From positions 1,335 through 65,334 of the forward strand of contig CAWCPY010000017.1 of the NCBI GenBank assembly GCA_963797385.1: a DNA stretch of 64,000 nucleotides, written 5' to 3'. Below are positions 5,872 through 46,598 of the stretch, piece by piece. The position numbers were made by a program, and so were the translations under genes. How positions within the stretch are numbered: position 1 is the stretch's first letter; every line of letters begins with the position of its first letter. The DNA is from Terriglobia bacterium. GTDB lineage: Bacteria; Acidobacteriota; Terriglobia; Terriglobales; Acidobacteriaceae. Below the pieces are notes generated by a model, which was given only the letters and a program-made list of their open reading frames with translations, searched no databases and was not told the origin of the DNA.

Positions 5872-5881
5872 TCACAACGAA

Positions 5882-6003
5882 CCACGTGGGGACAGCCGCC
5901 CTCGGCTGTCCGGCGGAGCAACGCTCCGCTGGTTTTGCGCTTGCATCAAAGGCCGTCGAGCTCTCGCTCGACCGGACAGCCGAGGGCGGCTGTCCCCACG
6001 CGG
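5882..6003. repeat. four-hairpin REP-like element, full copy
   Basis: CCACGTGGGGACAGCCGCCCTCGGCTGTCC GGCGGAGCAACGCTCCGC ... GTCGAGCTCTCGCTCGAC CGGACAGCCGAGGGCGGCTGTCCCCACGCGG. Confidence 0.9.
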
Positions 6004-6027
6004 TTCGCGCCAGCGTAAGATCATGTC

Positions 6028-8026: not shown

Positions 8027-10713
8027 ATGGCAATTCGTTGGGAAAAACTTACGGTGAAGGCACAAGAAGCGGTCCAGCGGGGCAACGACCTCGCCTCCGA
8101 GCACGGCAATCCTGAACTGTTGCCTCTGCACTTGCTGGCGGCTCTACTTGAGGACAAAGAAGGAATTGTGCAACCCGTGCTGGAAAAAATTGGCATCGGT
8201 CCCCAAGCCGTACTGAGCGAGACTTATCGCGAGATCGAACGCCTGCCTAAAGTTTCCGGCGGCGGAGCGGCCCAGGCCACGCTGTCCAAAGCGGCCAACG
8301 ATCTTCTCGACCGGGCCTTCAAGGAAGCGGCCAACTTCAAGGACGAATATGTTTCGACCGAGCACCTGCTGCTGGCCATCACGCACCTGAAAAAGGACCC
8401 CAGCCAGGAAATCCTGGCCCGGCAGGGCGCCACTTACGATGCCATTCTCAAGGCCCTAACCTCGGTGCGCGGCTCCCAGAAAGTGACGGACCAGAATCCC
8501 GAAGCCAAGTACCAGGCGCTGGAACGCTACGCTCGCGACCTGACGGAGCAGGCGCGGCGGGGGAAACTTGATCCGGTCATCGGACGTGACGAAGAAATCC
8601 GCCGCGTGGTGCAGGTGCTCTCCCGACGTACCAAGAACAATCCGGTGCTGATCGGCGAGCCCGGCGTGGGCAAGACCGCCATCGTCGAAGGCCTGGCCCA
8701 GCGCATCATCTCCGGCGACGTGCCCGAGGCCCTCAAGAACAAACGCGTGGTGGCGCTCGATCTCGGCTCCATGCTCGCGGGAGCGAAGTTTCGCGGCGAA
8801 TTTGAAGACCGCCTCAAGGCGGTGCTCAAGGAAATCGAAGACTCGCAGGGAAAAATCATCCTGTTCATCGACGAACTGCACACCCTGGTGGGCGCGGGTG
8901 CGGCGGAGGGCGCGATTGACGCTTCCAACATGCTGAAGCCGGCGCTGGCCCGCGGCGAGTTGCGCGCCGTCGGCGCCACCACGCTCAACGAGTATCGCAA
9001 GTACATCGAAAAAGATACCGCGCTCGAACGCCGCTTCCAGATTGTGTTTGTCGGGGAACCGAACGTCGAGGACACCATCGCCATTCTTCGCGGGCTGAAG
9101 GAACGCTACGAAGTGCATCACGGAGTACGCATCAAGGACTCCGCCATCGTGGCAGCGGCCACCTTGTCGCACCGCTATATCTCGGACCGATTCCTGCCCG
9201 ACAAAGCCATCGACCTGATCGACGAAGCGGCGGCCTCGCTGCGCATCCAGATCGATTCCATGCCCACCGAAATCGACCAACTGGAACGCCGCGCCACGCA
9301 GCTGGAGATCGAAAAGCAGGCGCTCAAGAAAGAGAGCGACCCCAACTCCAAAGAGCGTTTGGCGGTAATCGAGAAAGAGCTGGCGGAACTGCGGGAAAAA
9401 TCCCATGCGCTGAAAGCCAACTGGAAGCAGGAAAAGGACCTGATTGCCCGGACTCGAACGCTCAAGGAGAAAATTGAGCAGCTCAAGATCGAAGAGCAGG
9501 GGGAAGAGCGCAAAGGCAACCTGCAACGAGTGGCGGAGATACGCTACGGTTGCTGGTGCAGGCCGAAGAAGAACTGAAGAAGCTGACGGCGCAGATGGAC
9601 GGGGCTGCTCCGGGCAAATCCGCGCCCGGCAAGGCGGGCGATGGCGCCCGCCCCACACGGATGCTGAAAGAAGAAGTGGACGAGGAAGACGTGGCCCGCA
9701 TCGTCTCCAAGTGGACTGGCATTCCGGTCTCGAAGATGCTCGAAGGCGAAGTCAAGAAGCTGGTCACCATGGAAGAGCGCCTGCGGCAGCGCGTGGTCGG
9801 CCAGGACGCCGCGCTTGAACGTGTGGCCAACGCCATCCGCCGCTCGCGCGCCGGCTTGAGCGATCCCAAGCGGCCCATCGGGTCATTTATTTTCCTCGGG
9901 CCGACGGGCGTGGGCAAGACCGAACTGGCCCGCGCTCTGGCCGAGTTCCTGTTCGACGATGAGCACTCCATGGTGCGCATCGACATGTCGGAGTACATGG
10001 AGAAACACGCGGTCTCGCGCTTGATCGGCGCGCCTCCCGGCTATGTGGGCTACGAAGAAGGCGGACAGCTCACGGAGCAGGTGCGGCGGCGCCCCTACGC
10101 GGTTGTGCTGTTCGACGAAATCGAGAAGGCGCATCCGGATGTGTTCAACGTCCTGCTGCAGATGATGGATGATGGCCGCCTGACTGACGGCCGGGGCCGC
10201 ACTGTGGATTTCCGCAATACGGTCATTATCATGACTTCGAACATCGGCTCTGCCTTCCTGCAGTCCGAAGGTTTGCGATCCGACAAAGAGTTCGACGAGG
10301 CCTCAAAGCAGGTGATGAATGCCCTGCACAGCCACTTCAAGCCGGAGTTCCTGAACCGCGTGGACGACATCATCGTCTTCCGTCCGCTGGGCAAAGAGCA
10401 GTTGGTGAAGATTATCGAGCTGCGGCTGGAAGACGTTCGCCGGCTGCTGGCCGATCGAAAGATTTCACTCGAGTTGACCGATGCGGCCAAAGACCTGCTG
10501 TTCACCGAAGGCTTCGATCCCAACTTCGGGGCGCGTCCGCTGAAGCGGGCGATTCAGAAGCTGGTGCAGGACCCGCTGGCGCTGAAGATCCTGGACGGCG
10601 AGGTGCTGCACGGCGATCACGTGGTCGTAGACGCCGACAAGAAAACCGGCAGGATGGTATTCGAAGTCAGCAAGCGTGTGGGCGAGAAAGAACCGGCCAA
10701 GGCAAAGCGTTAA
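8027..10713 (+). CDS. clpB: ATP-dependent chaperone ClpB, split by an apparent 1-nt deletion near 9550
   Basis: ORF 8027..9577 carries the N-domain, NBD1 (GEPGVGKTA) and the first half of the M-domain, ending ...VAEIRYG. ORF 9550..10713 continues [12 protein letters not shown]..., NBD2 (GPTGVGKTE) and the C-terminal domain. The two frames overlap by one base at TACGGTTGCTG. Confidence 0.9.
9603..9658. repeat. REP-like GC hairpins inside the clpB coding sequence
   Basis: CCGGGCAAATCCGCGCCCGG and GGCGGGCGATGGCGCCCGCCCCACAC. The second matches the intergenic unit GGCGGGCGAGGGCGCCCGCCCCACAC. It encodes ...[16 protein letters not shown], which E. coli ClpB lacks as I recall that protein. Confidence 0.65.
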
Positions 10714-10720
10714 CCAAGGA

Positions 10721-10833
10721 CCGCGTGGGGACAGCCGCCCCCGGCTGTCCGGCGGAGCGAAGCTCCGCTTTCATGGCGCAACAAATGTCGAGCTCCGCTC
10801 GACTGGACAGCCGGGGCGGCTGTCCCCACGCGG
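10721..10833. repeat. four-hairpin REP-like element, full copy
   Basis: CGCGTGGGGACAGCCGCCCCCGGCTGTCC GGCGGAGCGAAGCTCCGC ... GTCGAGCTCCGCTCGAC TGGACAGCCGGGGCGGCTGTCCCCACGCGG. Confidence 0.9.
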
Positions 10834-10882
10834 CCTGTGGTCGTCATTGCCCAATTTCCCTTTTCGCCTTACCATCCAGTCA

Positions 10883-11926: not shown

Positions 11927-12098
11927 TCGTCGAACTAGTCGTCAGTCTTCAGTCTTCAGAAAAGCTAGACGACAACGGACGATTGGGGACTCAAGACTGA
12001 TTCTTATGAGTTGTTTATTCTAGTCGTCAGTGATCAGTTGTCAGTTCTCAGAAAAACCAGACTCTGCTGACGACTGAAGACCGACGACTGACGACTGG
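11923..12098. repeat. heptamer-periodic imperfect palindromes
   Basis: The arms are built of degenerate 7-mers (GTCGTCA GTCTTCA GTCTTCA; GTCGTCA GTGATCA GTTGTCA GTTCTCA). The complementary 7-mers (CTGACGA CTGAAGA CCGACGA CTGACGA) lie downstream. Confidence 0.7.
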
Positions 12099-12103
12099 TT
12101 CCC

Positions 12104-12685
12104 ATGATTGCTCATCTGCGCGGAAAGCTGCTGGCCAAGCATCCCAACCAGGCCATCGTTGAGACCGGCGGCGTCGGATATGACGTGGTCATCAGCGTTC
12201 CTACATTTTCTGATCTGCCCGCAATCGGCGGCGAGGTTGCGCTGCACATCCACACCCATGTGCGGGAAGACGCGCTCGCGCTCTACGGATTTCTGCATTC
12301 GTCCGAGAAGGCACTGTTTGAAAAACTGATCACGGTAAGCGGCATCGGACCCAAGCTGGCCATCACCATTCTGAGTGGCATGGCGGCTGACGAGATGATC
12401 AACGCGATCCGCGGCAACGACATCGCACGGCTCACCCGAATTCCCGGCATCGGCAAGAAAACCGCCGAGCGCATGGTGCTCGAACTGCGCGACAGGCTGG
12501 CCCTCGAAAAACACGGAGAGATTGCGGCCGCACCCGCACTGAGCTCAGTAGAAGAAGACGTGCTCTCGGCGCTGGTGAACCTGGGGTATCAGCGCGCGGC
12601 GGCAGAGAAGGCATTGGCCTCGGTCTCCAAAAGCGGCCAGTTCGACGCCATGTTCCGCGCCGCCCTGGCCGGCCTCACCAAATAG
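12104..12685 (+). CDS. ruvA: Holliday junction DNA helicase subunit RuvA
   Basis: OB-fold N-terminus and two helix-hairpin-helix motifs (VSGIGPKLA, IPGIGKKTAERM). Confidence 0.9.
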   Translation: MIAHLRGKLLAKHPNQAIVETGGVGYDVVISVPTFSDLPAIGGEVALHIHTHVREDALALYGFLHSSEKALFEKLITVSGIGPKLAITILSGMAADEMINAIRGNDIARLTRIPGIGKKTAERMVLELRDRLALEKHGEIAAAPALSSVEEDVLSALVNLGYQRAAAEKALASVSKSGQFDAMFRAALAGLTK

Positions 12686-14146
12686 CTACTTTCCGATGCA
12701 GAACCTGCTGAAGATCAGATTCATGATGTCATCGTTGGTGGTGGCCCCGGTGATCTCATCCAGCGGACGCAGTGCGCTGTACAGATCGAGCAGGACCATC
12801 TCGTGCGGGATTTTACTTCGCGCCGCGTTCACCGCCGCGTCAAGCCCGGACAGCGAGTCGCGCACCAGGCCCTGATGGCGCGTGTTGGTAAGGAAGCCAG
12901 TTTCGCGGCTGCCTTCTAACTCTCCTCCTGCGTGGCGCAGGATCTCGGCGCGCAGCCCAGGAATACCTTCTGCCGTCAGCGCCGACACTCGAACGCGCTG
13001 CAACTGGGAACCGGGAACCTGAAACTGGGAACTGATTTTGTCGGACTTGTTTTCCACCAGAATGGCCTTTCGCTGTGCCACCAGCTCCAGCAACCGGAAA
13101 TCTTCCGCTCCGGCCGGTTCAGAAGAATCCAGCACCACCAATACCAGGTCTGCTTCGGCCAGGGCTTCCATCGATTTGCGAATGCCGATGTCTTCCGCTT
13201 CATCAAGGGCGCGCCGGATGCCGGCAGTATCGACCAGCTTTACAGGAATACCCCCCAGCGCAACCGTTTCGGTCACCAGGTCGCGAGTAGTTCCAGGGGC
13301 AGAGGTGACGATGGCGCGGTCAGTCTCGACCAGGCGATTGAACAGGCTCGATTTGCCCACGTTGGGCCGGCCCACGATGGCGAGGGTCAGTCCCTCGTGG
13401 ACGAGCTTGCCATAAGCGAAGGAGGCGGCCAGCTCTTCCAGCGGGGCTCGAAGCACAGAGATGTGGGCAAGGATTTGCTCCGCCGGAAGGACCGAGACGT
13501 CGTCCTCGGCGAAATCGATGCCCGCTTCGAGCAGAGCGATCAATTCCACCAGCTTCTGTTTGATGGGCTGGAGCCGGCGGGAGAGTGCGCCCTCAAGTTG
13601 CTGGGCTGCGACCTTGGCCTGATAAAGCGTTTGCGACTCGATCAGATCGCGGACAGCTTCGGCTTGGGTCAGATCGATGCGACCATTCAGAAACGCGCGC
13701 ATGGTGAACTCACCCGGCTCGGCCAGTCGTGCTCCTCGCGCCAGAGCCAGTTCGACCACGTGGCGCAGCACCACGGGAGAGCCGTGGGCCGAGATTTCGA
13801 TGATGTCATCCGTAGTGTAGGAATGAGGCGCGGCGAAGTAGGTGACGACCACTTCGTCGATGCGCTGACTCTGCCGGTGGGTGCGAGTGTGTGGAGCGGG
13901 CGCCCCCGCCCGCTGCTTTTGTTCTTCTGCCTCTGAATCGCTGCCGGCTTCCAGGCGGGCGAGGGCGCCCGCCCCACAGGGTTCCACCAACTCTCCAAAC
14001 ACCGCTTGCCCGGGCGCAAGTTCGTGCTTCAGGCGCAGCATGGGCGCGGCAATCGTGCGTGCGTCAGGCCCGGCAATGCGCACAACCCCGATGCCGCCAC
14101 GGCCGGGCGGTGTGGCGATGGCGACGATAGTGTCGTCGAGGTTCAC
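12686..14146 (-). CDS. mnmE: tRNA modification GTPase MnmE, carrying a 31-codon repeat-derived insertion
   Basis: G-domain motifs [15 protein letters not shown] and NKSD. C-terminal CIGK. N-terminal [14 protein letters not shown]. Confidence 0.9.
13887..13979. repeat. 93-bp GC-hairpin MITE-like element inserted in-frame in mnmE
   Basis: GTGTGGAGCGGGCGCCCCCGCCCGCTGCTTTTG ... GGCGGGCGAGGGCGCCCGCCCCACAG. The termini match the intergenic elements at 20919-21053 and 17632-17778. Confidence 0.8.
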
Positions 14147-14192
14147 GGGAAGATTGTAGCGGGTGAAGGCAGTTTTCGCGGGGAGGCAGATA

Positions 14193-14239
14193 GCCGAGCG
14201 TTGCTCGGCATGGACGGGTCAGAGACCCGTCCCCACACG
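14193..14239. repeat. half REP-like element
   Basis: GCCGAGCGTTGCTCGGC followed by GGACGGGTCAGAGACCCGTCC and CCACAC. Confidence 0.7.
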
Positions 14240-14248
14240 GGCAACTAG

Positions 14249-14788
14249 TCAGGGCAGGGTTTTCCGCGGGGGCTTGGCCGCCGCGGGCTTGTAATTTTCC
14301 GGATAGACGACTACGTAGCGGCGCATTCCTTCGCCTTCGCTTTGGGTACGCAGGTCGCTTTGATCGCGCAAAGCCAGGTGGACGATGCGGCGCTCGCGCG
14401 ATGACATAGGGGCAAACTCGTATGGCATTTTGGTCTTGCGCACTCTGTCTGCCGCCACCCCGGCCGCCAGGCGCAGCTCTTCCAGCCGCATGCCGCGATG
14501 GTTCATGCAGTCGAAGCAGATTTTCTCGTGCTCATTACCGGCCAGGCGGAGCATTTCGAGCGCGAGGAATTCAATGGAGCGCAGCAGTTCGCCGCCCCGC
14601 TCCAGGAGCAATGGCGAGTCCGGGCCCACGAACTCCACCAGAATTTCGGGACGCTCCCAGTCCCGCTGCTCGGCCAGCGGCGGGTCCACGGTGATGCGGT
14701 ACTTCAGGCGCAATCCACCGTTGGCGACAATACCTTTCAGCAGGTCGTTGATCTTATTGGCAGCGGCGATCTTGTCGGGAATGGACAC
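14249..14788 (-). CDS. jag: Jag/KhpB-type RNA-binding protein (KH + R3H)
   Basis: C-terminal R3H motif (ERRIVHLALRD). It occupies the conserved position downstream of yidC. Confidence 0.8.
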   Translation of the reverse strand: MSIPDKIAAANKINDLLKGIVANGGLRLKYRITVDPPLAEQRDWERPEILVEFVGPDSPLLLERGGELLRSIEFLALEMLRLAGNEHEKICFDCMNHRGMRLEELRLAAGVAADRVRKTKMPYEFAPMSSRERRIVHLALRDQSDLRTQSEGEGMRRYVVVYPENYKPAAAKPPRKTLP

Positions 14789-14790
14789 AG

Positions 14791-14872
14791 GCTTCTAGCT
14801 CCTGGCTGCTAGCTTCCAGCTATCGCCTCCGGCCAACGTTTGGCTAGAAGCCAGCAGCTAGAAGCTAGAAGC
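14791..14872. repeat. heptamer-periodic palindrome between jag and yidC
   Basis: Left arm GCTTCTA GCTCCTG GCTGCTA GCTTCCA. Right arm GGCTAGA AGCCAGC AGCTAGA AGCTAGA. The arms are imperfectly complementary. Confidence 0.7.
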
Positions 14873-16633
14873 TCACTTATCTTTCTTCCTCGCCCGCTTC
14901 AGCGCGATCTCCCGCATTTCGCGGCCCAGGCTGGTACGGTTCATCACTGCCTGCTGGGCAATAGCGATCAGGTTGCCCTCGGACCAGTACAGGCACAGGC
15001 CCGCCGCCAGGTTCCAGCTGATGACGCCCAACATCAGCGGCATCATGAAGGTCATCATTTTTTGCTGCGACGGGTCCATACCCGGCTGGGGCGTCATACG
15101 TTGCGTGAGCAGCATGGTGATGATAATTCCGATGGGCAACAGATGCCACGGGTCGGGCGAAGATAGATCGTGGATCCAGAGCCAGTGCGCCTGCCGCAGG
15201 TCCAGGGCCGCGCCCAGCATGCTGTAGTAGGCAAACAGGAACGGCATCTGGATGACCATGGGCAGGCATCCGCCCACCGGATTCACGCCCTCCGCCTTGT
15301 ACAGCGCAGAGACCTCCTGGTTCATCTCCTGCTTGCGCGGATCGCGCATGCTGTACTTCTTGTACTTTTCCTGGATGGCCTTGATCTGCGGCGCCACCTT
15401 CTGCATCTTGAGCGCGGATTTCATGCTGGAGACGCGCAAGGGCAGCAGGGCCACATTGATGATCAGGGTCTGGATGACAATGGCCCAGCCCCAGTTGTGC
15501 ACCCAGCCGAAGGTCCACTTGAGCCAGAGGAACAAGGGACGGGCGATCACACCGAAGAAACCAAAATTGATCAGGGCACGCAGGTCCGGCGGCGCCCCGG
15601 TCAAGGTGGGCACTGCCACAGCTTCGAGTACGCCGAGTGATTTGGGCCCTACGTACAGGCGTTCGACGCTGGGTCCGCGAAGATTGCCTACGCCGACTCC
15701 CAGAACGTCTTCCTTGATCGTCTCCTGGGGATTGGGGTTCTTCGCATTCTTGGGCACTTCAATCTGGTGCCGCAGCGTGACCATGGCTGCGTTCTGGATG
15801 TCTTCGGGCAGAAAGACCGCGGCAAAATACTGGTCAACCACGCCGGCCCAGTTGAACGGACCCAGCAGAGTGGCCCCGCCGCTGACTTTCTTAATATCGA
15901 GGCGCTCGGTCTTGTCGTTGTACTGGTGCTCGATGCGGCTGCCGGCATAGGAGGACGGGCTCGACTGGTCGCCGAATCCGGCCGGCCACATGGGGTAGGC
16001 CGTGACCTGGCTGCCCTTTGAAACCACCGAGGTGTCGACATGGACAACGTAAGTGTGATCAAAGCTGAAAGTCTTGCGAACTGCCACATCCTGGTCGGCG
16101 TATTCGAAGGTGAGTTCGGCAGGGGCCTTCACGTTTCCTGATTCGGAGGCAAGATAAAGCGCTGAGTTCAATTTATTGCGCTGGGTCTCGTCGTAAGTCC
16201 ACAGCGACAGCGGGTATCCGTACTTCTCCGCCGCCTTGCTGACTAATTCGAGGGGCTTGCCCTGCTCGTCAAAGTACGTTTTGAGGATCCAGGACTTCAC
16301 CAGGCCGCCGCGGTTGGTGAAAGTAACGCGGTAAAGATCGTTTTCGATGACCGTGTCAGCTTCAGCTGCAGCCTGCTTGGTGACACCCTTGGCGGGAAGT
16401 GGGACCTGGGGCGTGGCGGGCACTGGAGCCGCCGGCTGAGCGGCTGGCTGGGTCGCCGGCTGAGTCGCCCGCTGAGCCGCGGCCGGAGTTTCGGGCGCAG
16501 GCGTGGCCGTCTGCGGCATGTACTTTTTCAGCAGAGGTTGAAACAGAATGATGACCAAAAAGGTGAGCGCGAACACCAGCAGCAGCCGGCGCTCCATGCC
16601 AGGATCTTGTTGAGGATTGTTGAAGTCAGGCAA
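14873..16633 (-). CDS. yidC: membrane protein insertase YidC
   Basis: 586 aa with an N-terminal TM, a large periplasmic domain and a YidC/Oxa1 core (PLFLWLKW..., GCLPMVIQMPFLFAYY). Confidence 0.92.
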   Translation of the reverse strand: MPDFNNPQQDPGMERRLLLVFALTFLVIILFQPLLKKYMPQTATPAPETPAAAQRATQPATQPAAQPAAPVPATPQVPLPAKGVTKQAAAEADTVIENDLYRVTFTNRGGLVKSWILKTYFDEQGKPLELVSKAAEKYGYPLSLWTYDETQRNKLNSALYLASESGNVKAPAELTFEYADQDVAVRKTFSFDHTYVVHVDTSVVSKGSQVTAYPMWPAGFGDQSSPSSYAGSRIEHQYNDKTERLDIKKVSGGATLLGPFNWAGVVDQYFAAVFLPEDIQNAAMVTLRHQIEVPKNAKNPNPQETIKEDVLGVGVGNLRGPSVERLYVGPKSLGVLEAVAVPTLTGAPPDLRALINFGFFGVIARPLFLWLKWTFGWVHNWGWAIVIQTLIINVALLPLRVSSMKSALKMQKVAPQIKAIQEKYKKYSMRDPRKQEMNQEVSALYKAEGVNPVGGCLPMVIQMPFLFAYYSMLGAALDLRQAHWLWIHDLSSPDPWHLLPIGIIITMLLTQRMTPQPGMDPSQQKMMTFMMPLMLGVISWNLAAGLCLYWSEGNLIAIAQQAVMNRTSLGREMREIALKRARKKDK

Positions 16634-16638
16634 ATTCG

Positions 16639-16923
16639 CTACTCAGTGACCGCACGACTGGCGGGCGGCGCCGCATTCGGCGTCACGCTGTAGTTGTTCA
16701 ATCGCACCACCGGATCATAACCGCCTCTAACAAAAGGATGACAGCGCAACACGCGCCACAGCGCTCTCAGGCCGCCGCGCAGCACGCCGTAGCGGTCCAC
16801 CGCTTCCATCGCGTACTCGGAGCAGCTGGGCACGTAGCGGCAGGCCGGAGGCAAGAGCGGCGAGAGCGCCCACTTGTATCCGCGTAACAGGAAGAGTACG
16901 AGGCTTCTGGCCCACCGGTTCAT
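16639..16923 (-). CDS. yidD: membrane protein insertion efficiency factor YidD
   Basis: Conserved YK..LSPLLPP.CRY.PSCSEYA motif. Confidence 0.85.
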
Positions 16924-17387
16924 TGTTTTCCCGCTGCCTTTTCGATTACGTCGAACGCCCGTCGAATTTCGCGCTGCACATCCTCAAACTCTGCGGTCAG
17001 GAGCGACTTCTTGGGGTTGATCACGACATCCATCGCGGCTGCAATCATGCCATGCAATCGGACCGCTTCCCGCAGGCGTCGCTTCAAGCGATTGCGCAAT
17101 ACCGCGCCGCCCAGCACCTTCCCCACCGTGAACCCGACCCGCACTCCTCCGTCACTTTCGCGGCGCGGGAGGTAAAACACGGTCATGTGGGCGGCAAAAT
17201 GCCGGCGCCCCTGTTTGTACACGCGCTCGAAATCCGCGTGCCGGAGCAAGCGCACGCTGCGCGGGAACCTGCTTCTGCCCGATCCCGACCGGTCGCCGCC
17301 GCCATTGGCCGCGAGTGAGTTCACAGCACGCCTCAACCCAGATTGCGAATCTTCCGCGAATTCCGGAAAAGGGGAAGCACTACTCAC
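16920..17387 (-). CDS. rnpA: ribonuclease P protein component
   Basis: [12 protein letters not shown] ... [13 protein letters not shown] motifs. 4-nt overlap with yidD. The non-ATG start at 17387 is uncertain. Confidence 0.8.
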
Positions 17388-17535
17388 GGAAGCCGGGTTT
17401 CACTGACACCCGCTTGCGGCCCTTGGCACGCCGCCGCGAAATTACCGCGCGGCCGGCCTTGGTCTTCATCCGCGTAAGAAATCCGTGCGTCTTCGAGCGG
17501 TGACGACGGTTAGGCTGGAATGTGCGCTTGGGCAT
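17380..17535 (-). CDS. rpmH: 50S ribosomal protein L34
   Basis: [42 protein letters not shown]. The real start is the internal Met of ORF 17380..17748. Confidence 0.92.
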
Positions 17536-17631
17536 GAAAAATCGCTGCTCCTGATGAACTGGGTCTCTTTTAAAGCGAATGAGAAGTATAAATGAGTGCG
17601 CGCAGCCGGGCAAACCGGGAGGCGCGGAAGA

Positions 17632-17778
17632 TGTGGGGCGGGCGAGGGCGCCCGCCGCTTTTGCAGTTGCCCTTGCTTCTGAAATTTTTCCTTTTCCCGC
17701 AGGGTCACAGGGCTGCCGGCGAGGGGTAAATCCGAAAGTCCAGATCAACAGCGGCGGGCGAGGGCGCCCGCCCTACAC
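17632..17778. repeat. GC-hairpin MITE-like element
   Basis: TGTGGGGCGGGCGAGGGCGCCCGCCGCTTTTGCAG ... CAGCGGCGGGCGAGGGCGCCCGCCCTACAC. Confidence 0.75.
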
Positions 17779-18063
17779 CGACTTCTGCACCACTCGCGCG
17801 ACAGTTATAAGTTGAACACTTGACAGGAGGATTGCTTAGGGTTCTGAATCATAGCAACGAAAAAAGTCGGCGAACAAGATTCCCGCAGACGCAAAAATTT
17901 TGTGCTAGTATGCCGGACTGATCCAGCTTACAGAAATTTTCTTGACCCAGGGCAAACGGCCAGCAATCAAGGCTCTTCTGCTGCTGGAAAATGAAAGCAT
18001 TTTGGGTTGCACAAGTTCTGATACCGGGCGCTGATCTGGCCGCAGCCCCACGAAAATTATTTT

Positions 18064-19443
18064 ATGTCTGTTCCAAGCCCAAGCCTCTCTCCCAATCCGT
18101 GGTTGCGCGTTCTGGACGCGCTGGAAAAAAAGATCAACCGGCATTCGTATGACACCTGGCTGAAGCCCACCAAGTACAGCCATTCCGCCGGACCTGTCCT
18201 TTTCGTGCGCGTGCCCACCGCAGAATTCCGCCACGTGGGCGACAAGTACGCGGACCTGATCCAGGAAGCGCTGGACAATCTTGGCCTGGAGTTCCAGGAA
18301 GTGAAGTTCGTCACGCCGGAAGACGATCCCGCCTCGACTCCCGTGCGTCACGACGGCGGACTCTCCGCCCACCTTGTTCCCGCCAGCTCGCACGCCTCCC
18401 AGTCGCGCTTTGATTGGGACGGCGCGGCGCAACTGAATCCACGCTATACCTTTGACGCATTCGTCATCGGCAGCGGAAACCAGTTCGCGCATGCCGCCTG
18501 CCAGGCGGTATCGGAACGTCCCTCGAAAGCCTATAACCCGCTCTTCCTCTATGGCGGCGTCGGCATGGGCAAGACCCACCTGATGCAGGCCATCGGCCAC
18601 GAGATCAAGCGCCGCCAGCCGCAGTCGGCCATCTGTTACGTCTCCAGCGAGAAGTTCACCAACGAAATGATCAACTCGCTGCGTTACGACAAGATGATCA
18701 GCTTCCGCGACAAGTTCCGGGGCGTGGACGTGCTGCTGGTGGACGATATCCAGTTCCTGGCCCAGAAGGAACGCACCCAGGAAGAGTTCTTCCACACCTT
18801 CAACGCGCTGCACGAGTCCATGAAGCAGATCGTGATCGCCAGCGACCGTCCTCCCAAGGAGCTGGCGGAGTTCGAGGACCGCCTGCGCAGCCGCTTCGAG
18901 TGGGGACTGATCGCTGACATCCAGCCGCCCGACCTCGAAACCAAGGTCGCCATTCTGCAGAAGAAGGCGGAGCAGGAAAAGGTCATTCTGCCCACCGACG
19001 TGGCGCTTTACATCGCTTCAAACATCCGTTCCAACGTTCGCGAACTGGAAGGCGCGCTCATCCGCCTGGTGGCGCACTCTTCCCTGATCGGCGCCGAGAT
19101 CACCCTGCCTTACACCCAGCAGGTGCTCAAAAATTTCATCGACTCCCAGGCCCGCAAGGTGACCATTGAGTCGATTCAGAAAGCCGTGGCCGAGCAATTT
19201 GGATTGCGCCTGGTGGAGATCAAGGCCAAGAACAACTCGCGCGCCATCGTCTATCCCCGGCAGATCGCGATGTATCTGGCCAAGCATCTCACCGAAGCTT
19301 CACTGCCAGAGATCGGACGCCAGTTTGGCGGCAAGCATCACACCACGGTGCTGCATTCGGTGGACAAGATCGATGTCACCCGTAAGACCGACAAGGATTT
19401 GAACAGGTTGATCAATAAAATGACCGAACAGTTGGGTGGATGA
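18064..19443 (+). CDS. dnaA: chromosomal replication initiator protein DnaA
   Basis: AAA+ Walker A GGVGMGKTHL, Walker B LLVDDIQF, and a C-terminal DNA-binding HTH (FGGKHHTTVLHS). Confidence 0.95.
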   Translation: MSVPSPSLSPNPWLRVLDALEKKINRHSYDTWLKPTKYSHSAGPVLFVRVPTAEFRHVGDKYADLIQEALDNLGLEFQEVKFVTPEDDPASTPVRHDGGLSAHLVPASSHASQSRFDWDGAAQLNPRYTFDAFVIGSGNQFAHAACQAVSERPSKAYNPLFLYGGVGMGKTHLMQAIGHEIKRRQPQSAICYVSSEKFTNEMINSLRYDKMISFRDKFRGVDVLLVDDIQFLAQKERTQEEFFHTFNALHESMKQIVIASDRPPKELAEFEDRLRSRFEWGLIADIQPPDLETKVAILQKKAEQEKVILPTDVALYIASNIRSNVRELEGALIRLVAHSSLIGAEITLPYTQQVLKNFIDSQARKVTIESIQKAVAEQFGLRLVEIKAKNNSRAIVYPRQIAMYLAKHLTEASLPEIGRQFGGKHHTTVLHSVDKIDVTRKTDKDLNRLINKMTEQLGG

Positions 19444-19460
19444 ACAGTGGCTTCAAACCG

Positions 19461-19722
19461 TATTTCCACTCAGCAGCAAAGTCTTCCTTGAGCGGCACTG
19501 TGAATCGGTTGTGGAAGGTGTGTAAGAGACGGTGACAATCGCGAGGCACGGCCAAACGATACCTTCATCTCCGCCAGTGAGTGGGCTAGTTTTCGACATG
19601 AAGGCTTGAGCGCAGAAACCGGTGGGATGCGGGTTTGGACACGATTTCCACTTTTACGACCCCTCTACTGTTACTGCTGGTTTTATAGGTTTTTATTTTG
19701 ATATAAGGGAAGTATTTAAAGT
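19461..19722. other. candidate oriC core (DnaA-box-like sites + AT-rich unwinding tract)
   Basis: TTTCCAC-type boxes at 19461-19469 (TATTTCCAC), 19509-19518 (TTGTGGAAGG, inverted) and 19643-19651 (GATTTCCAC). An AT-rich tract at 19681-19722 (TTTTATAGGTTTTTATTTTGATATAAGGGAAGTATTTAAAGT). Confidence 0.45.
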
Positions 19723-19749
19723 AGCGCCGCCTGACGGGAGATCTGGGTT

Positions 19750-20907
19750 ATGCCGGTAGAAGCTTTGGCCTCAGCCACGGGGACCGCCACCATGGAAATC
19801 ACGGTCAGCAAATTCGAACTTTTAAAAGAACTGACTGCGACCCAGGGGGTGGTGGAGCGCAAGACTACAATCCCAATCCTCTCCAACTACCTATTTGAAG
19901 CTTCGAGCGACAAGCTTTCACTCACCGCCACCGACCTCGACCTAAGCCTGCGCACGGTGTGTAACGCCAAAGTCAAGAAGGAAGGCTCCTGTACGATCCC
20001 GGCCCGCAAATTGCACGACTACGTAAAGCTGCTGCCGGACGCCGATATCACCATCAAGCTGCTGGAAAATCATTGGATCAGCATTCGCTGTGGACGGTCG
20101 AATACCAAAATGGTGGGGATGGCGCGTTCAAACTTTCCCACGCTGCCAGTGTTTCCGACCGCTGGTGTAGTGAAGATTCCCGCCCAGGTATTGCGCGCCA
20201 TGATCGCCAAAACCGGGTTCGCCATCGCCAGCGAGGAATCGCGTTATACCCTGAACGGCGCGCTCATGGTTCTGAAACCTGAGTCCATCACCATGGTGGC
20301 GACTGACGGACATCGCCTGGCCCACATCGAACGCAGCGGAGAAAAGTTCGAAGGCGTTTCCGGAGAGCTGAAAACCCTTATTCCCAAGAAAGCTATGGAC
20401 GAGCTCAAGTCTTTGCTTGATTCGACCGACGCGGAAACCATTGACTTCGCGAAAGACGAGTCCACGCTCTATTTCCGCATCGGACAGCGGCTGCTGACCT
20501 CGCGCCAACTCACGGGCCAGTTCCCCAACTACGAAGCCGTTCTTCCCAAGGACAACAACAAGAGCGTCACCCTGGCCGGCAACGAGTTGAGCGCGGCCAT
20601 CTCCCGCGTAGCCCAGTTTGCCGACGAGCGCTCGCGCGCCGTCCGCCTAAGGCTGGAGAAGGGCGAAGTCAAACTTTCCGCCTCCTCGACCGAAACCGGC
20701 GAATCCGAAGACTCGATCGAAACCGGCTACCAGGGCGATTCCCTGACGGTCGGGTTCAACGCCCAATACATTCTGGACTTCCTCAAAGCCGTCGGCGCCG
20801 GCGACGTGAAACTCGAATTCAAAGATCCCCAGTCCGCCGGCCAACTCCGCCCCGCCGACAGCGAAGACTACAAGTACCGCTACATCGTCATGCCCATGCG
20901 GATCTGA
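19750..20907 (+). CDS. dnaN: DNA polymerase III beta sliding clamp
   Basis: Typical DnaN sequence (MEITVSKFELLKEL..., ...YRYIVMPMRI). An alternative start at ATG 19792 would give 371 aa. Confidence 0.92.
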   Translation: MPVEALASATGTATMEITVSKFELLKELTATQGVVERKTTIPILSNYLFEASSDKLSLTATDLDLSLRTVCNAKVKKEGSCTIPARKLHDYVKLLPDADITIKLLENHWISIRCGRSNTKMVGMARSNFPTLPVFPTAGVVKIPAQVLRAMIAKTGFAIASEESRYTLNGALMVLKPESITMVATDGHRLAHIERSGEKFEGVSGELKTLIPKKAMDELKSLLDSTDAETIDFAKDESTLYFRIGQRLLTSRQLTGQFPNYEAVLPKDNNKSVTLAGNELSAAISRVAQFADERSRAVRLRLEKGEVKLSASSTETGESEDSIETGYQGDSLTVGFNAQYILDFLKAVGAGDVKLEFKDPQSAGQLRPADSEDYKYRYIVMPMRI

Positions 20908-20918
20908 GATACTCCCCC

Positions 20919-21053
20919 CGTGTGGGGCGGGCGCCCTCGCCCGCCGCTTTTGATCCCGACTTTTGCCACGGCAGGTTTAATGCCCAGTAACCCACATCTC
21001 CATGTCCCGAATCAACTTCAAAGGCAGCAGGCGAGGGCGCCCGCCCCACACAC
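20919..21053. repeat. GC-hairpin MITE-like element, full copy
   Basis: GTGTGGGGCGGGCGCCCTCGCCCGCCGCTTTTGATCC ... GCAGGCGAGGGCGCCCGCCCCACACAC. Confidence 0.85.
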
Positions 21054-21124
21054 AAGTCGTTCAGCTTGACCGACCCTGCGTCGACGCCGTAAATTAGCCG
21101 CCTTGCGCTTTGGAGGTTCCTTCC

Positions 21125-23508: not shown

Positions 23509-23514
23509 AAGGAA

Positions 23515-25293: not shown

Positions 25294-25402
25294 TTTTGGC
25301 TGCATTTACCGGCCCGGTTCGGGGGTCGAAAAATGCTGTTTCTCGTGCTACAATTGGCTACAACCTCGGAAGCCGTAAGTGTTAATAATTTCAGTAATTT
25401 GA

Positions 25403-35309: not shown

Positions 35310-35499
35310 AGAGTTGACCCTTGCAGACCCAGATTATCCTACTGTCGAGGCCCCGCGCTGCGAACCGGATTGGTCATCCGGGAAGGGGGAGTTGTGAACC
35401 CTTTTTCCGAGCTCGTCCATGGTATAATTCTCATATCGCGAATTCGCGGTAACTTCCTGTAAATGCAATTGTTTAGGGCGGAACAATGGCTGAGCTATC

Positions 35500-35623
35500 A
35501 CGTGTGGGTCGGACACTCCTGTCCGACGCTTTTGAAGTTGATTTTACCCCGGCATTGTTAAGGATGAACGACTCAGAAACAACGCAAGTCAAAGGCAGCG
35601 GACAGGAGTGTCCGCTCCACACA
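35500..35623. repeat. MITE-like element with hairpin termini, ending 21 nt before the gyrA ATG
   Basis: ACGTGTGGGTCGGACACTCCTGTCCGACGCTTTTGAAGTTGATTTT ... GCGGACAGGAGTGTCCGCTCCACACA. A related copy lies at 55645-55787. Confidence 0.8.
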
Positions 35624-35644
35624 AGCTAGGAGCTAGAAGCTTAC

Positions 35645-38374
35645 ATGGCTGACGATCAGAATCCCGAACTCCCCTTGACGCCTCCTCCCAACGGCGGAGA
35701 CGGCACCGGCATTCCCGGCGCGCTTAACATTCAACCCGTCAATATCGAAGAGGAGATGAAGAAGTCTTATCTCGACTATTCGATGTCGGTCATTATCGGG
35801 CGCGCGCTGCCCGACGTCCGCGACGGATTGAAGCCGGTGCATCGCCGCATTCTGTACACCATGCAGCAGATGGGCCTGGCGCCCAATAAGTCCACCCGCA
35901 AGTGCGCCCGCATCGTCGGCGACGTGATGGGCAAATACCATCCCCACGGCAACCTGGCTGTGTACGACGCCCTGGTGCGCCTGGCGCAGCCGTTTGCCAT
36001 GCGCTATCCGCTGGTGGATGGACAAGGCAACTTCGGCTCCGTCGACGGCGACCCGCCGGCCGCAGATCGTTACACCGAAGCCAAGCTTACTCGGGTTGCG
36101 ACAGCGCTGCTAGAAGATCTCGACAAAGATACCGTCGATATGCGCCCCAACTACGACGGCAACGAAATTGAGCCCGACGTGCTTCCCGCGCGCATCCCGA
36201 ACCTGCTGGTGAACGGATCAGACGGCATCGCGGTGGGCATGGCGACGAAAATTCCGCCCCACAACCTGACTGAAATTGTGGATGCCACCATCACCCTGGT
36301 GAACAATCCTACTGCGCAGCTCGCCGAAGTTCTGAAATTTGTGCAAGGCCCGGATTTCCCCACCGCCGGCATCATTCACGGCAAGGCGGGAATCGTAGAC
36401 GCCTACAAGAACGGCCGCGGACGCTTCATCATGCGGGCCAAGGCGGGCATCGAAACGTTCAACAAAGACCGCAAGGCCATCGTCATCACCGAAATTCCCT
36501 ACCAGGTCAACAAGGCGCGCCTGGTGGAGCGAATCGCGCAGTTGGTGAATGACAAGGTCGTCGATGCCATCTCCGACATTCGCGACGAAAGCGATCGCGA
36601 CGGCATGCGCATTGTGGTCGAGCTAAAGCGCGACGGCGAGCCCCAGCTCGTCCTCAACCAGCTGTTCAAGCACACCCAGATGCAGGAAAGCTTCAGCATG
36701 ATCCTGCTCGCCGTGGTCAACGGACAGCCCAAGGAAATGGGCCTGGTGCAGGCCATCAAGCACTTCATCGACCACCGGGTTGATGTGGTCCGCCGCCGCA
36801 CCGCCTTCCTGCTCTCGAAAGCCAAAGACCGCGAACATATTCTCGAAGGCTACCTGACCGCGCTCGATCACCTGGACAACGTGATCACCATCATTCGCGC
36901 CAGCGCCAACCGCGCCGAGGCCCGCGAGAACCTGGTCGCATACTTTGCCGGAAAGAAAATTGATATCAACGTCACCGGCCGCGCTCCCAAGCGCGATCCG
37001 GAAAAGCCCTTCACCGGCATTCAGGCCGACGCGATTCTCGAACTGCAGTTGCACCGCCTCACCAAGCTGTCGATCGACGAAATCACCAAAGAACTGACCG
37101 TCACCCGCGAGCACATCGCGGATTACGAATCCATCCTGAGTTCGGAGAAGAAACTCCGCGCCGTGATCGTGCGCGAACTCGAAGAAGTAAAGAAGCTCTA
37201 CGGCGACGACCGCCGCACGGTGATCGAAGACGAAGCCGCCGAAATCCATCTCGAAGACCTGATTGCCGACGAACAAGTCGCAGTCACGGTGAGCCACGGC
37301 GGCTACATGAAACGGACGCCAATCTCCACCTACCGCATGCAGCGCCGCGGAGGCACCGGCCGCACCGGCATGAAGACGCGCGACGAGGATTTCGTCGAAC
37401 ACCTCTTCATCGCCTCCACCCACGCCTACATTCTCATCTTCACCAACACCGGGCGTGTTTACTGGCTGAAGGTTTACGAGATTCCTGACATCAGCGCCGC
37501 CGGCAAAGGCAAACACGTCGGCAACCTGGTCGGCCTGCAACCGGGAGAGACGGTCCGCACCATGCTGGCCGTTCGTAACCTCGAAGAAGCGGGCAAGTAC
37601 ATCTTCTTCTCCACCCGCAACGGATTGGTAAAAAAGACCGAGCTCAAGGATTTCTGCCACGTGCGCTCGAACGGCATCTACGCCATCAGCATCGAGCAGG
37701 GCGACGAACTGGTCGCCGCCCGCCTCACCGACGGCCAGCAGATCATCTTCCTGGCCACCCACGAAGGCCAAGCCATCCGCTTCGACGAAGCCGCCGTCCG
37801 CCCCATGGGCCGCCAGGCCTACGGCGTCTGGGGCATCCGCATGGAAAAGGGCGACTACCTGGTGGGCATGGCGACAACGCCAAAGCCAGGCGCTGATGTG
37901 GGCGCGGGCATCCCGCCCGTGCAAGGCAAGGACAATCACAAAGACAAAGACAAAGCCAAGACTGGTGGGGCCAGCGTGGTTGCGGGCGACTCGCCCGCGG
38001 ACGCCACCGCCGAGGTCGTCGACGTCGGCAAAAGAGGCACCCTGATCCTCTCCGTCACCGAAAACGGCTACGGCAAACGTACCCCCGCCGACGAATACCG
38101 TCTGCAGGGACGCGGCGGCTCGGGCGTCATCAACGTCAAAACCACCGCCCGCAACGGCAAGGTGGTAGGCATCGCGCAGGTGGAAGAACACTCCGAGGTC
38201 ATGCTGATCAGCCAATACGGCAAAATCATCCGCATGGACTCAGAAACCATCCGCGAATCCGGCCGCGCCGCCCAGGGTGTCCGCCTGCTGAACCTGGAAC
38301 CGGGAGATCGGGTGGCGGCGTCGGTGGTCATCCCGCCGGAGGAAGAGCCGGCGAATGGGACGCTGATTCAGTAA
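35645..38374 (+). CDS. gyrA: DNA gyrase subunit A, with a repeat-derived insertion in the C-terminal domain
   Basis: GKYHPHGNLAVYDA, active-site region AADRYTEAKL, and C-terminal beta-pinwheel repeats (ENGYGKRT, QGRGGSGV). Confidence 0.95.
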   Translation: MADDQNPELPLTPPPNGGDGTGIPGALNIQPVNIEEEMKKSYLDYSMSVIIGRALPDVRDGLKPVHRRILYTMQQMGLAPNKSTRKCARIVGDVMGKYHPHGNLAVYDALVRLAQPFAMRYPLVDGQGNFGSVDGDPPAADRYTEAKLTRVATALLEDLDKDTVDMRPNYDGNEIEPDVLPARIPNLLVNGSDGIAVGMATKIPPHNLTEIVDATITLVNNPTAQLAEVLKFVQGPDFPTAGIIHGKAGIVDAYKNGRGRFIMRAKAGIETFNKDRKAIVITEIPYQVNKARLVERIAQLVNDKVVDAISDIRDESDRDGMRIVVELKRDGEPQLVLNQLFKHTQMQESFSMILLAVVNGQPKEMGLVQAIKHFIDHRVDVVRRRTAFLLSKAKDREHILEGYLTALDHLDNVITIIRASANRAEARENLVAYFAGKKIDINVTGRAPKRDPEKPFTGIQADAILELQLHRLTKLSIDEITKELTVTREHIADYESILSSEKKLRAVIVRELEEVKKLYGDDRRTVIEDEAAEIHLEDLIADEQVAVTVSHGGYMKRTPISTYRMQRRGGTGRTGMKTRDEDFVEHLFIASTHAYILIFTNTGRVYWLKVYEIPDISAAGKGKHVGNLVGLQPGETVRTMLAVRNLEEAGKYIFFSTRNGLVKKTELKDFCHVRSNGIYAISIEQGDELVAARLTDGQQIIFLATHEGQAIRFDEAAVRPMGRQAYGVWGIRMEKGDYLVGMATTPKPGADVGAGIPPVQGKDNHKDKDKAKTGGASVVAGDSPADATAEVVDVGKRGTLILSVTENGYGKRTPADEYRLQGRGGSGVINVKTTARNGKVVGIAQVEEHSEVMLISQYGKIIRMDSETIRESGRAAQGVRLLNLEPGDRVAASVVIPPEEEPANGTLIQ
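37898..38000. repeat. REP/MITE-like sequence in-frame inside gyrA
   Basis: GTGGGCGCGGGCATCCCGCCCGTGCAAGG closely matches the intergenic GTAGGCGCGGGCGCCCCCGCCCGTGCAAGG at 25136. The right end carries the hairpin GCGGGCGACTCGCCCGC. Confidence 0.65.
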
Positions 38375-44780: not shown

Positions 44781-44890
44781 GGTAAGGTGTGATCCTCGCT
44801 ACCCATGATAGTCGATGTCAGGCGGCCGTGTGGCGCGGGCGCCCTCGCCCGCGTGCGTCGGGCCCGCGATCCTGCGGTAAACTTCACAGT

Positions 44891-46598
44891 ATGTTCCGCC
44901 GGATTCTTCCCGCACTTTTCTTTGCTCTCATCGTCGCAAACGCGATTTCCATGCAAGCGGCCGGCAAGCCGAACATCGTCCTGATCACTCTAAGTTCCAC
45001 GCGCGCCGATCGCATGGGTTTTCTCGGCTCGAAAGCGAAAATTACGCCGAACCTCGATGGCCTGGCCCGCCAGAGCCTGATTTTCGAACACGCATATTCC
45101 CAGGCGCCGCTGACGGTGGTCTCCCACGCAACCATCCTTACTGGCACTTATCCCCAGACCCACCGGGTCAGCGAGTTCGGCTCCCGGCTGGCGTCCACGC
45201 TGCCTTTCGTCCCTGACTTGTTGCGCGCAGGTGGATATCGTACCGCCGCCTTCGTCGGATCGATCGCGCTCGATCCGAAAAACGGACTGGCTCCGGGCTT
45301 CGACCGCGGATTTTCGACATACGACGCCGGCTTTCAGCCGCCGGGAGCATGGCCCGGGCCGAAACAGCTCAGTCGATCGGGCAGCAGCGCAAGTCGTCGC
45401 TCGGGCTGCGGCCTGGCTTGCCCGCAATCCTAACGGCCCATTCTTCCTGTGGGTGCACCTGAATGATCCACAGGCTGCGTCCGGCGCTTCCTACAATGCC
45501 GCCGTGGGCGCCACTGATGTTGCCGCGGGAAAGCTGATTGCCGTCTTGCGGGCCCGGAAGCTGTACGACGATGCACTCATTGTTATTGCTGCCGATCACG
45601 GTCAGGGCCTGGGCGAGCATGGCGAGGAGACTCACGGAGTCTTCCTCTACGATGAAACCATCCATGTGCCCTTGTTGCTGAAGTTGCCTCAGAACCAGAG
45701 CGCGGGTAAGCGAGTGAGCGGGCGGGCTTCACTGGTGGACGTTGCTCCCACCGTCCTTGCCATCGCGGGCGTGCCGATTCCGTCGCAGATGCAGGGGCAG
45801 TCTTTATTGAGAATCTCGAAGACGAATTCCGATCAGGCCTCTTATTCGGTCAGCGATTTTCCGAAACGCGGGTTCGGGTGGAGCGCGCTGGAATCCTGGC
45901 GTGCGGGTAAATATCTATACATCAAGGCGCCCCAGCCGGAGCTCTATGATCTCTCGGCCGACCCCGGCGCCACGCGCAATCTGGCCGAGACTTCCAAGGC
46001 CACGCTCGAAACCATCGCCGGTCAGCTGGATGCCTTCGACCGGCGTTTCAGCAACCCCGGCGCCTCCGGAGGCCCTGAACTTACCTCCAGCGAAATGCAG
46101 AAGCTGGCTTCGCTGGGATACGTCGGCCTGCAGAAATCCGCGGGTCCGAACGCCGCCGCGACGGGAGTCGATCCGAAGGATGGAATTGCAGACGCAAACA
46201 AGGTCCTGGCGGCGCTGGCGTTGCTGGACGAAGGAAAGCCGGAGAAGGCTGCGGCCATTCTGCAGCCAGTGCTGGCAACGGGCTCAAGGATGTACCTGGC
46301 CCAATTCGTCATGGGATCTGCGCTGGCCCGCCAGCAACAGTATCCCAAGGCCATTGAGTATTTGCGGCATGCGATCGAGCTCCAGCCCGACTCGACCTGG
46401 GCGCACTACGAAATGGGTGCCAGCCTCTTGAAGAGCGGCGATTTCAAGACCGCAGTTGTCCACCTGGAGATTGCCGCAAGCCGGCTGCCCGGCTTCGCGG
46501 AGGCCCATGCCCTGCTGGCCCAGGCTTACGACCATCTAGGGCGGGCGGAAGAGGCGAAGCGAGAGCGCTCCCAATCGGGGGCCTCGCCGAAGCCGTAG
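44891..46598 (+). CDS. sulfatase-like hydrolase with C-terminal TPR domain, apparent +1 frameshift near 45343
   Basis: Signal peptide, then NIVLITLSSTRADRMG...THATILTG in the frame of ORF 44789..45433. It continues as FFLWVHLNDP...IAADHGQGLGEHGE plus TPRs in the frame of ORF 45231..46598. Confidence 0.75.

Follow-up and report, generated by a model that had tools for sequence, protein, structure and literature searches.

In-frame colonization of conserved proteins by palindromic repeats is best known from Rickettsia. The palindromic elements of that genus (RPEs, RPE-1 to RPE-8) were reported by Ogata et al. (cited in PMC3733652 and PMC1779305), and repetitive extragenic palindromes (REPs) lying inside genes were catalogued in several phyla by Di Nocera, De Gregorio and Rocco in 2013 (PMC3733652). 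In that catalogue the intragenic REPs are mostly dimers or grouped repeats that encode 20–30 amino acids, many of them in DNA-repair and tRNA-related genes, and in two Xanthomonas species recB has REPs that differ from each other but occupy roughly one position in the gene; the same work covers acidobacterial tyrosine transposases (TIRYT/TIRtron) whose flanking terminal inverted repeats (TIRs) share GGGGWSAS and in some cases belong to repeated families. Inverted REP pairs with a short spacer, or REPINs, were treated by Bertels and Rainey in 2011 (PMC3116915). Here we analyze a palindromic repeat inside mnmE, in a 64,000-nt stretch of a genome of the Acidobacteriaceae (Terriglobia bacterium, assembly GCA_963797385.1, contig CAWCPY010000017.1), which we call the window. 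The mnmE segment is very probably a REPIN-like doublet, composed of two inverted REP-class hairpin repeats lying in frame in a loop of MnmE, inherited by descent in a protein whose loops have been recurrently colonized by such elements, with the mobility and arm conversion that we propose below.

The repeat of mnmE (family A) and the other families found with it are like REPs and REPINs in forming hairpins of 20–40 nt with a short conserved head and, in the window, in having many copies that are mostly intergenic and often just past stop codons; inverted doublets occur frequently, a minority of copies lie in frame in housekeeping genes, and Xanthomonas recB provides a precedent for a recurrent coding site. 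They differ in that the mnmE repeat has a GTGG/GTGTGG head instead of GTAG/CGTC, making it a GTGG-headed relative, in that no cognate REP-associated tyrosine transposase (RAYT) flanked by the exact mnmE repeat was found in the loci scanned, and in that at least four unrelated families occupy one loop and a second loop is colonized, across dozens of species, with subtype switching over an inherited spacer. The likeness to RPEs proposed in the initial annotation is supported as one of behavior: a palindromic repeat lies in frame in a conserved protein whose open reading frame (ORF) stays intact, such repeats would be translated as extra surface segments compatible with function, and the hosts include tRNA-modification and DNA-metabolism genes. 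Homology to RPEs is unlikely given the very G+C-rich composition and the host, a free-living soil acidobacterium rather than an obligate intracellular alphaproteobacterium, and several short REP-type families co-exist here as opposed to elements of 100–150 bp.

The TIRYT/TIRtron elements belong to the same phylum, and several features recall them: the start of our family B, GTGGGGACAG, fits GGGGWSAS, its double palindrome occurs in dimers as in the repeated TIR family of Koribacter versatilis, and the clade encodes a conserved Y1 transposase of 160 aa with inverted hairpins on either side. In contrast, GGGGWSAS is not matched by family A (GGGGCGGG), the flank of the transposase is GGGTGGCGCAGCGCTTCAGCGCTGCG, and a link between any transposase and the mnmE element is putative. 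MITEs, or miniature inverted-repeat transposable elements, are likewise small, non-autonomous and repeated, with inverted ends and occasional reported in-frame insertions, but the mnmE element shows no visible target-site duplication and no relation to the ends of insertion sequences with DDE transposases, and its ends are self-folding hairpins as in REPs. The initial annotation had regarded such insertions as rare outside Rickettsia, which does not hold, as in-frame REPs are known from Opitutus, Thauera, Xanthomonas, Stenotrophomonas and others (PMC3733652). The mnmE doublet is itself an ordinary example of an uncommon, documented phenomenon; what is new is the recurrent colonization of one coding site. 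Our literature search found no report of in-frame palindromic repeats in Acidobacteriota, of a single coding loop in which many families have settled throughout an order, or of arms that change subtype around a spacer kept by inheritance.

An inherited doublet in the N-terminal domain of MnmE

The mnmE gene (Table 1) encodes a protein with the Pfam domains TrmE_N, MnmE_helical and MMR_HSR1 (the G domain); it matches MnmE structures in the PDB at E values of 1e-95 to 9e-77, with alignments that reach the C-terminal CIGK, and thus has the features expected of MnmE/TrmE proteins, from the N-terminal and helical domains to the G domain inserted in the latter and the FCIGK at the C terminus. The ORF call and these domains bear out the earlier statement that the 486-residue frame is intact. 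Within it are two inverted arms of 26 nt each, 39 nt apart (13889–13914, plus strand, and 13954–13979, minus strand), complementary at 22 of 26 positions when the register is set from TGTGG. Their total span is 91 nt (13889–13979), and codons C57–T87 occupy 13886–13978. The element first described as 93 bp long (13887–13979) is indeed an in-frame palindromic repeat, with arms that span 91 nt and a codon range that had been placed one base off; its length of "exactly 31 codons" is approximately right but depends on the boundary chosen, the excess over the shortest orthologues being ∼38 aa when the tail described below is included.

The doublet is read as CGAGALAR...RAGAPAPHT. Its upstream arm encodes (P)CGAGALAR and forms an 8-bp hairpin of its own, GGCGGGCG-CCCT-CGCCCGCC, the downstream arm encodes RAGAPAPH(T), and the downstream end of the spacer, in gene direction, carries CAAAAGC, the complement of the inner GCTTTTG motif of the family. 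GCTTTTG adjoins the inner side of the plus-strand arm and recurs at the intergenic copies, including the variant at 35495–35629, in agreement with the motif sharing noted initially. The CA-rich tail that follows, RTHRQSQ, differs in length among species (HTHTHSQTHSQ in L001; L numbers designate individual loci) and probably arose by slippage of the CCACAC terminus of the element together with a remnant of the native turn. The flanks, GGAACC|C and CACAC|ACTCGC, contain no direct duplication of the kind that MITEs leave. Because the doublet is in frame and free of stops, it would be translated together with the 390 residues downstream, giving MnmE a predicted extra loop of ∼31–38 residues.

Repeats of the same family are found throughout the window. 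The 26-nt consensus GTGTGGGGCGGGCGCCCTCGCCCGCC has nine copies with at most three mismatches, compared with 0.00 expected from 100 dinucleotide-preserving shuffles of the window, and 6/9 of the copies in this one 64-kb window are outside coding sequence; in L161, independent gene calls placed all five copies outside mnmE in intergenic DNA. Each 26-nt arm folds as the stem-loop given above, as REPs do. Repeats in this clade are built of a GTGG or GT(A/G)G head adjoining an 8-bp G+C-rich stem; the head in the window is GTGTGG and not the canonical GTAG or CGTC, the sole exception being GTGTAGG at 17753–17778. Inverted pairs with a short spacer, the arrangement that defines REPINs, occur at 13889–13979, 17632–17777, 20920–21051 and 35495–35629, and a long hairpin is predicted for the mnmE pair. 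The kinship that had been claimed between the mnmE repeat and those at 17632–17777, 20920–21051 and 28103–28128 is upheld, as all match GTGTGGGGCGGGCGCCCTCGCCCGCC. The arms of the doublet that follows dnaN are 34 nt long, are 91% complementary and contain GCTTTTGA. The A' subtype of the doublet upstream of gyrA is present in the mnmE loop of several other species.

The location of the insert was evaluated against structures and orthologues. MnmE structures (T. maritima, Nostoc, Chlorobium, and a 454-aa MnmE in 9hip) align to residue 53 and resume at residues 78–95, lacking ∼33–37 residues at the insert position, in line with the short loop that the initial annotation gave for E. coli MnmE. An AlphaFold2 model places the insert between strands 48–54 and 95–104, with pLDDT (predicted local distance difference test) below 50 for residues 58–93 and almost no secondary structure, which agrees with a loop location; as modeled, the doublet sits in a β-hairpin turn of the N-terminal domain. 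Our comparison set comprised 80 orthologous mnmE loci, each from a different GTDB species of Terriglobales, in which the segment from GEL[VI]EP to RIDEVVV measures 1 to 55 residues. The empty site sought in orthologues does exist, as L005 (GELVDSQKIDEVVV), L010, L043, L030 and L057 are near-empty.

Almost all of the 120 closest homologues (79–93% identical, from metagenomic Terriglobales) carry the insert with the same terminal peptides, and the insertion must therefore be old and shared. The spacers of the window and of L001, whose MnmE proteins are 89% identical, are clearly homologous. The insertion is thus ancestral, has since been inherited and is not private to the window genome. Among the homologues, P0102 is without the insert and P0019 (CG...PRP) resembles a deletion between the arms. 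We rejected an assembly artifact as the source of the segment, since an insert is found at the mnmE site in more than 100 independent assemblies.

Recurrent colonization of two MnmE loops

The insert classes at this site (loop 1) were counted approximately, by peptide patterns, in 81 loops (the 80 species plus the window). Class A with its subtypes A' and R (CGAGAxAR...RAGAPAPH; A' core GGCGGACACTCCTGTCCGCC, R core CGCGGGCGACTCGCCCGCG) fills ∼25 of them; class B is found in one orientation in at least nine (recognized by a 16-residue peptide signature) and in the opposite orientation in at least six (15-residue signature); ∼7 hold class D (VKIPTLAAKNAARMGHP) and three hold class E (VSSFQSPVSS...ETGNS). 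Ten loops are essentially empty, with no more than 12 residues between EP and RIDEVVV, and the peptide patterns leave 19 unclassified. Family B is a double hairpin, GTGGGGACAGCCGCCCCCGGCTGTCC-GGCCGAGCAAAGCTCGGC, and its two peptides represent one element read from opposite strands. Inserts of all classes fold as strong hairpins, and some are tandem or nested, with D and B together in L069 and L080 and with B-like sequence inside A arms in L012 and L075. In a blastn-short search of 1.6 Mb of loci plus the window, with mnmE masked, 54/69 inserts had matches outside mnmE compared with 13/207 length-matched control segments from mnmE, so that the similarity to intergenic repeats, whose significance had been left for a wider comparison to decide, is well above chance both by this measure and by the copy excess in the window.

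All three control segments with five or more matches overlap a second loop. This loop 2 belongs to the G domain, where it is bounded by NKSD and VRVSALT (residues ∼369–385 in the window protein), and in many species carries family B or other repeats, 33/77 loop-2 segments having repeat matches; L048, L049 and L053 have family B in both loops. No repeat matches were found for loop 2 of the window, which may be a decayed relic. Also in the G domain, at MnmE residues ∼300–328 of L008 (10001–11440), a 12-residue tandem duplication beside the DTAG motif repeats IRRALDE.

Loops 1 and 2 thus hold inserts of at least four unrelated palindromic families across Terriglobales, one of them in both orientations. 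Because the families are unrelated and the orientations opposite, at least five independent events must have occurred at loop 1, and in a single-gene neighbor-joining tree of MnmE the insert classes are interspersed. Other proteins of the clade also carry such inserts. In relatives, MnmG/GidA has family B in frame at two sites (residues ∼150 and ∼540), and family B is inserted in Tgt and in the N-terminal region of YidC in some species; the loci with family B in MnmG, Tgt or YidC are L069:13814–15925, L059:15906–18101, L072:1821–3110 and L070:5354–7378, all on the minus strand. With family B in MnmG as well as MnmE, the two partners of the MnmEG complex each bear repeat inserts in this clade.

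These observations extend in-frame palindromic colonization to free-living soil Terriglobales, in which it is pervasive and involves several families at once, and they account, for the purposes of annotation and of work on protein families, for odd low-complexity peptides found repeatedly in acidobacterial proteins and in spurious ORFs. One orthologous site followed over ∼80 species provides an unusual dated record in which elements are inserted, nested, decayed or deleted and their arms switch subtype, and this bears on whether the homogeneity of REPs and REPINs is due to transposition or to gene conversion.

Arm turnover, mobility and competing explanations

Among 15 mnmE doublets, complementarity of the two arms averages 85% within a species, but comparison of a given arm between species yields an identity of only 65%. 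In an alignment of arms from 11 species, 92% of cells conform to arm-to-arm pairing and 11 pairs have changed on both sides, a result equaled in 0/500 shuffles; pairing in the local hairpins amounts to 97%. The 49-nt spacers of L006 and L036 are homologous, flanked on both sides by A arms in the former and by A' arms in the latter, and L004 has one A arm and one A' arm around a 73-nt spacer that is common to L017 and L013. The subtypes A, A' and R also exist as intergenic or intragenic copies in the same genomes, which favors conversion or arm replacement over stepwise compensatory mutation. The arms most likely switch subtype jointly over an inherited spacer, by gene conversion against the genomic repeat pool or by arm replacement, with selection on the hairpin as an alternative cause of their covariation. 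A-type and R-type doublets may derive from a single insertion; in L006/L036 and L004 the evidence points to new arms around a spacer that was inherited, and independent re-insertion is possible for the other pairs.

With regard to mobility, a RAYT motif scan of the window and the 80 orthologous loci found none in the window and only one elsewhere, in L017 (5931–6527). This gene encodes a 160-aa Y1 (IS200-like) transposase (Pfam PF01797), some homologues of which are named "REP-associated tyrosine transposase"; it is flanked by inverted GCTTTTGGGTGG-CGCAGCGCTTTCAGCGCTGCG, and its open frame continues through the downstream repeat. The same combination of a 160-aa Y1 transposase and flanking inverted repeats recurs in soil metagenomes, on dozens of contigs. 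Among 80 such loci that encode a member of the transposase family (L081–L160), nearly all copies are flanked by inverted repeats of a further family, F, GCTTTTGGGTGGCGCAGCGCTT(C)CAGCGCTGCG, which is built like family A, with a G(G/T)GTGG head, an 8–9-bp hairpin and GCTTTTG nearby, but differs from it in sequence. L148 alone has an additional A-like outer pair, GTGTAGGCACGGGCGTCCTCGCCCGTGC, which reads GTGTAGG. It is plausible that the mnmE element was moved by a RAYT-type enzyme.

In our reading, hairpin elements would land genome-wide, those that disrupt proteins being lost, so that inserts would accumulate at the few coding sites that tolerate them. Mobility would most likely derive from a HUH tyrosine transposase of the RAYT/TIRYT type with single-stranded hairpins as its substrate, a resident element may draw further insertion or recombination, and the arm subtypes A, A' and R would co-switch over the inherited spacer through gene conversion with the repeat pool. 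It is possible, though we consider it doubtful, that the MnmE turn and the G-domain loop are more than tolerant sites and represent a true hotspot of insertion and turnover, at which a resident repeat is repeatedly targeted by the tyrosine transposases of the clade or by recombination with the genomic repeat pool; without loss of the reading frame, one element would then replace another or nest within it, and arms would exchange their subtypes. In that case the dynamics of REP families throughout a bacterial order would be recorded naturally in a universally conserved gene, which would also keep supplying the MnmE-MnmG tRNA-modification complex with new peptides at its surface.

Several points weigh against the interpretation as a mobile, recurrently inserted doublet. 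Neither a target-site duplication nor a defined insertion point can be read at the mnmE doublet, no RAYT flanked by family A itself is found among the 80 metagenome loci, and the window has no RAYT. Translation of the insert would follow from conservation of the frame, the quality of the AlphaFold2 model is no more than moderate (mean pLDDT 61.7), and some "empty" sites (L051, CGEAAD, and L007) resemble secondary deletions, not ancestral states. The single-gene neighbor-joining tree is too weak for an exact count of insertion events. A strict motif scan of the window and loci gave 154 matches, 70 of them in ORFs conserved on both sides in at least three other loci, and ∼55 of these 70 are in mnmE, the remainder being in mnmG, tgt, yidC and clpB; the enrichment of mnmE in this count of coding against intergenic copies is inflated because the families were defined from mnmE inserts, although even with that bias mnmE stands well apart from other coding sequence.

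Alternatively, the hairpin could be kept for a role in cis, such as a pause of translation between the two N-terminal strands, mRNA protection, a block to antisense transcription or binding of a protein to the DNA near the replication origin, the peptide being a by-product. The arms do stay complementary through two-sided changes while the spacer drifts, the 120-nt loop segment has a predicted fold of great stability (−67.5 kcal/mol) and mnmE is ∼4 kb from dnaA. We found neither a terminator-like site nor a promoter on the sense strand of the insert, while on the antisense (plus) strand the hairpin at 13895–13914 followed by GCTTTTGTTC scores as terminator-like; the sense-direction arm has CTGGAAG in place of the GCTTTTG of the family, a replacement that would avoid premature termination of mnmE, with the terminator-like hairpin and T tract surviving on the antisense strand only. 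However, this pattern is not general across species, the antisense T tract not being kept in most others, and a scan of the whole window at Rfam gathering thresholds returned no family at the mnmE repeat region. Unrelated and differently structured elements fill the same loop elsewhere, ∼10 species are essentially insert-free, and conversion can yield the covariation because the same subtypes occur as ordinary intergenic copies. We therefore regard a cis role as improbable.

The persistence of the insert across many species could also suggest that the loop has been co-opted as a protein feature, for example as a contact for MnmG, tRNA or a regulator, selection on the peptide now maintaining it; the partner MnmG has in-frame repeat inserts in several species, and Cys and Arg/Pro-rich motifs recur in the insert. 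The conserved residues are, however, exactly those set by the DNA hairpin, the peptide is wholly different between species with different families, pLDDT is low and insert-free species exist, all of which make co-option very unlikely. Conservation of CGAGALAR and RAGAPAPH in many homologues, taken alone, could resemble protein-level constraint on a lineage-specific native linker that is G+C-rich and self-complementary by chance and whose likeness to the repeats is incidental or reversed. Such a linker is contradicted by the excess of the 26-mer in the window (nine copies in 64 kb against none expected), by the absence of the segment from outgroups and several relatives, by the other repeat families, in both orientations, at the same place in other species, and by the lack of a confident structure for the insert in the AlphaFold2 model. 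An ancestral or native linker is thus scarcely credible and was rejected.

Other repeats and neighboring genes of the window

Table 1. Coordinates of mnmE, of its doublet and of other repeat elements in the window (strand "." for inverted pairs).
Feature	Position	Strand	Basis or remark
mnmE, tRNA U34 carboxymethylaminomethyl-modification GTPase	12686..14146	-	Intact 486-aa ORF; Pfam; PDB
Upstream arm of mnmE doublet (gene direction), CTGTGGGGCGGGCGCCCTCGCCCGCC	13954..13979	-	1 mismatch to consensus; inverted repeat; fold
Spacer of mnmE doublet, encodes 14 residues	13915..13953	-	Conserved with L001
Downstream arm of mnmE doublet (gene direction), plus-strand GTGTGGAGCGGGCGCCCCCGCCCGCT	13889..13914	+	3 mismatches to consensus
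Tail (T)RTHRQSQ, between repeat terminus CCACAC and conserved RIDEVVV	13865..13888	-	CA-rich
MnmE loop 2, G domain	12990..13040	-	
Family A intergenic doublet, between rpmH and dnaA	17632..17777	.	Inverted-repeat pair
Family A intergenic doublet, directly after dnaN stop codon	20920..21051	.	Inverted-repeat pair
Family A singlet, 7 nt past gyrB stop codon	28103..28128	+	Consensus match
Subtype A' intergenic doublet, GGACACTCCTGTCC core, upstream of gyrA	35495..35629	.	Inverted-repeat pair
Family A singlet in frame in clpB, 11 residues, linker before KEEVDEEDV	9633..9658	-	Consensus match
R-subtype copy GTGGTTGCGGGCGACTCGCCCGCG in frame in gyrA	37976..37999	+	
Family B intergenic doublets	5878-6007, 10713-10841, 25170-25299, 50735-50851, 62939-63096		
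Other intergenic inverted-repeat elements	11932-12101, 14791-14872, 23306-23509, 56764-56849		Short tandem motifs AGTCGTCAGTCTTCAG, GCTAGAAGC, CACGAAGG and others

The family B doublets of the window are double hairpins, GTGGGGACAGCCGCCC(C/T)CGGCTGTCC with a second hairpin of the GCGGAGC..GCTCCGC type; this is the element that lies in the MnmE, MnmG, Tgt and YidC frames of other species. The elements built from AGTCGTCAGTCTTCAG, GCTAGAAGC and CACGAAGG may be related to the SGQWSV/SSQFSV peptides in MnmE loop 2 of other species.

Two genes besides mnmE have in-frame copies in the window. The insertion site in clpB (8027–10713, plus strand) is empty in five related species. This gene is split into overlapping frames (8027..9577 and 9550..10713), with the break near 9545–9577, where the window has GGTTGCTGG, one T short in a T run, compared with the frame-keeping GGTTTGCTGG; the split represents either a real frameshift or an assembly indel. 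A sulfatase-like gene (called by eye) at 44789–46598 on the plus strand is also split, into ORFs 44789..45433 and 45231..46598, and this second possible indel hints at long-read assembly errors in the window. In gyrA (35645–38374, plus strand), the R-subtype copy lies inside an extra loop of ∼50 aa in the C-terminal domain, PGADVGAGIPPVQGKDNHKDKDKAKTGGASVVAGDSPADATAEVVDVGK, at about 37880–38030, which also contains a weaker hairpin near 37900; at this position the C-terminal domain of M. tuberculosis GyrA has almost nothing, and that of Xanthomonas has an insert of its own.

The mnmE gene is part of a classical replication-origin neighborhood (12104–21541), in which rpmH, rnpA (16920..17387), yidC (14873..16633), jag (14249..14788) and mnmE are on the minus strand and dnaA (18064..19443), dnaN (19750..20907) and then mscL are on the plus strand. 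The spacer between rpmH and dnaA, a frequent location of oriC, is occupied by a repeat doublet. Elsewhere in the window, a tRNA gene at 60458–60530 on the minus strand is the sole Rfam match at the gathering threshold.

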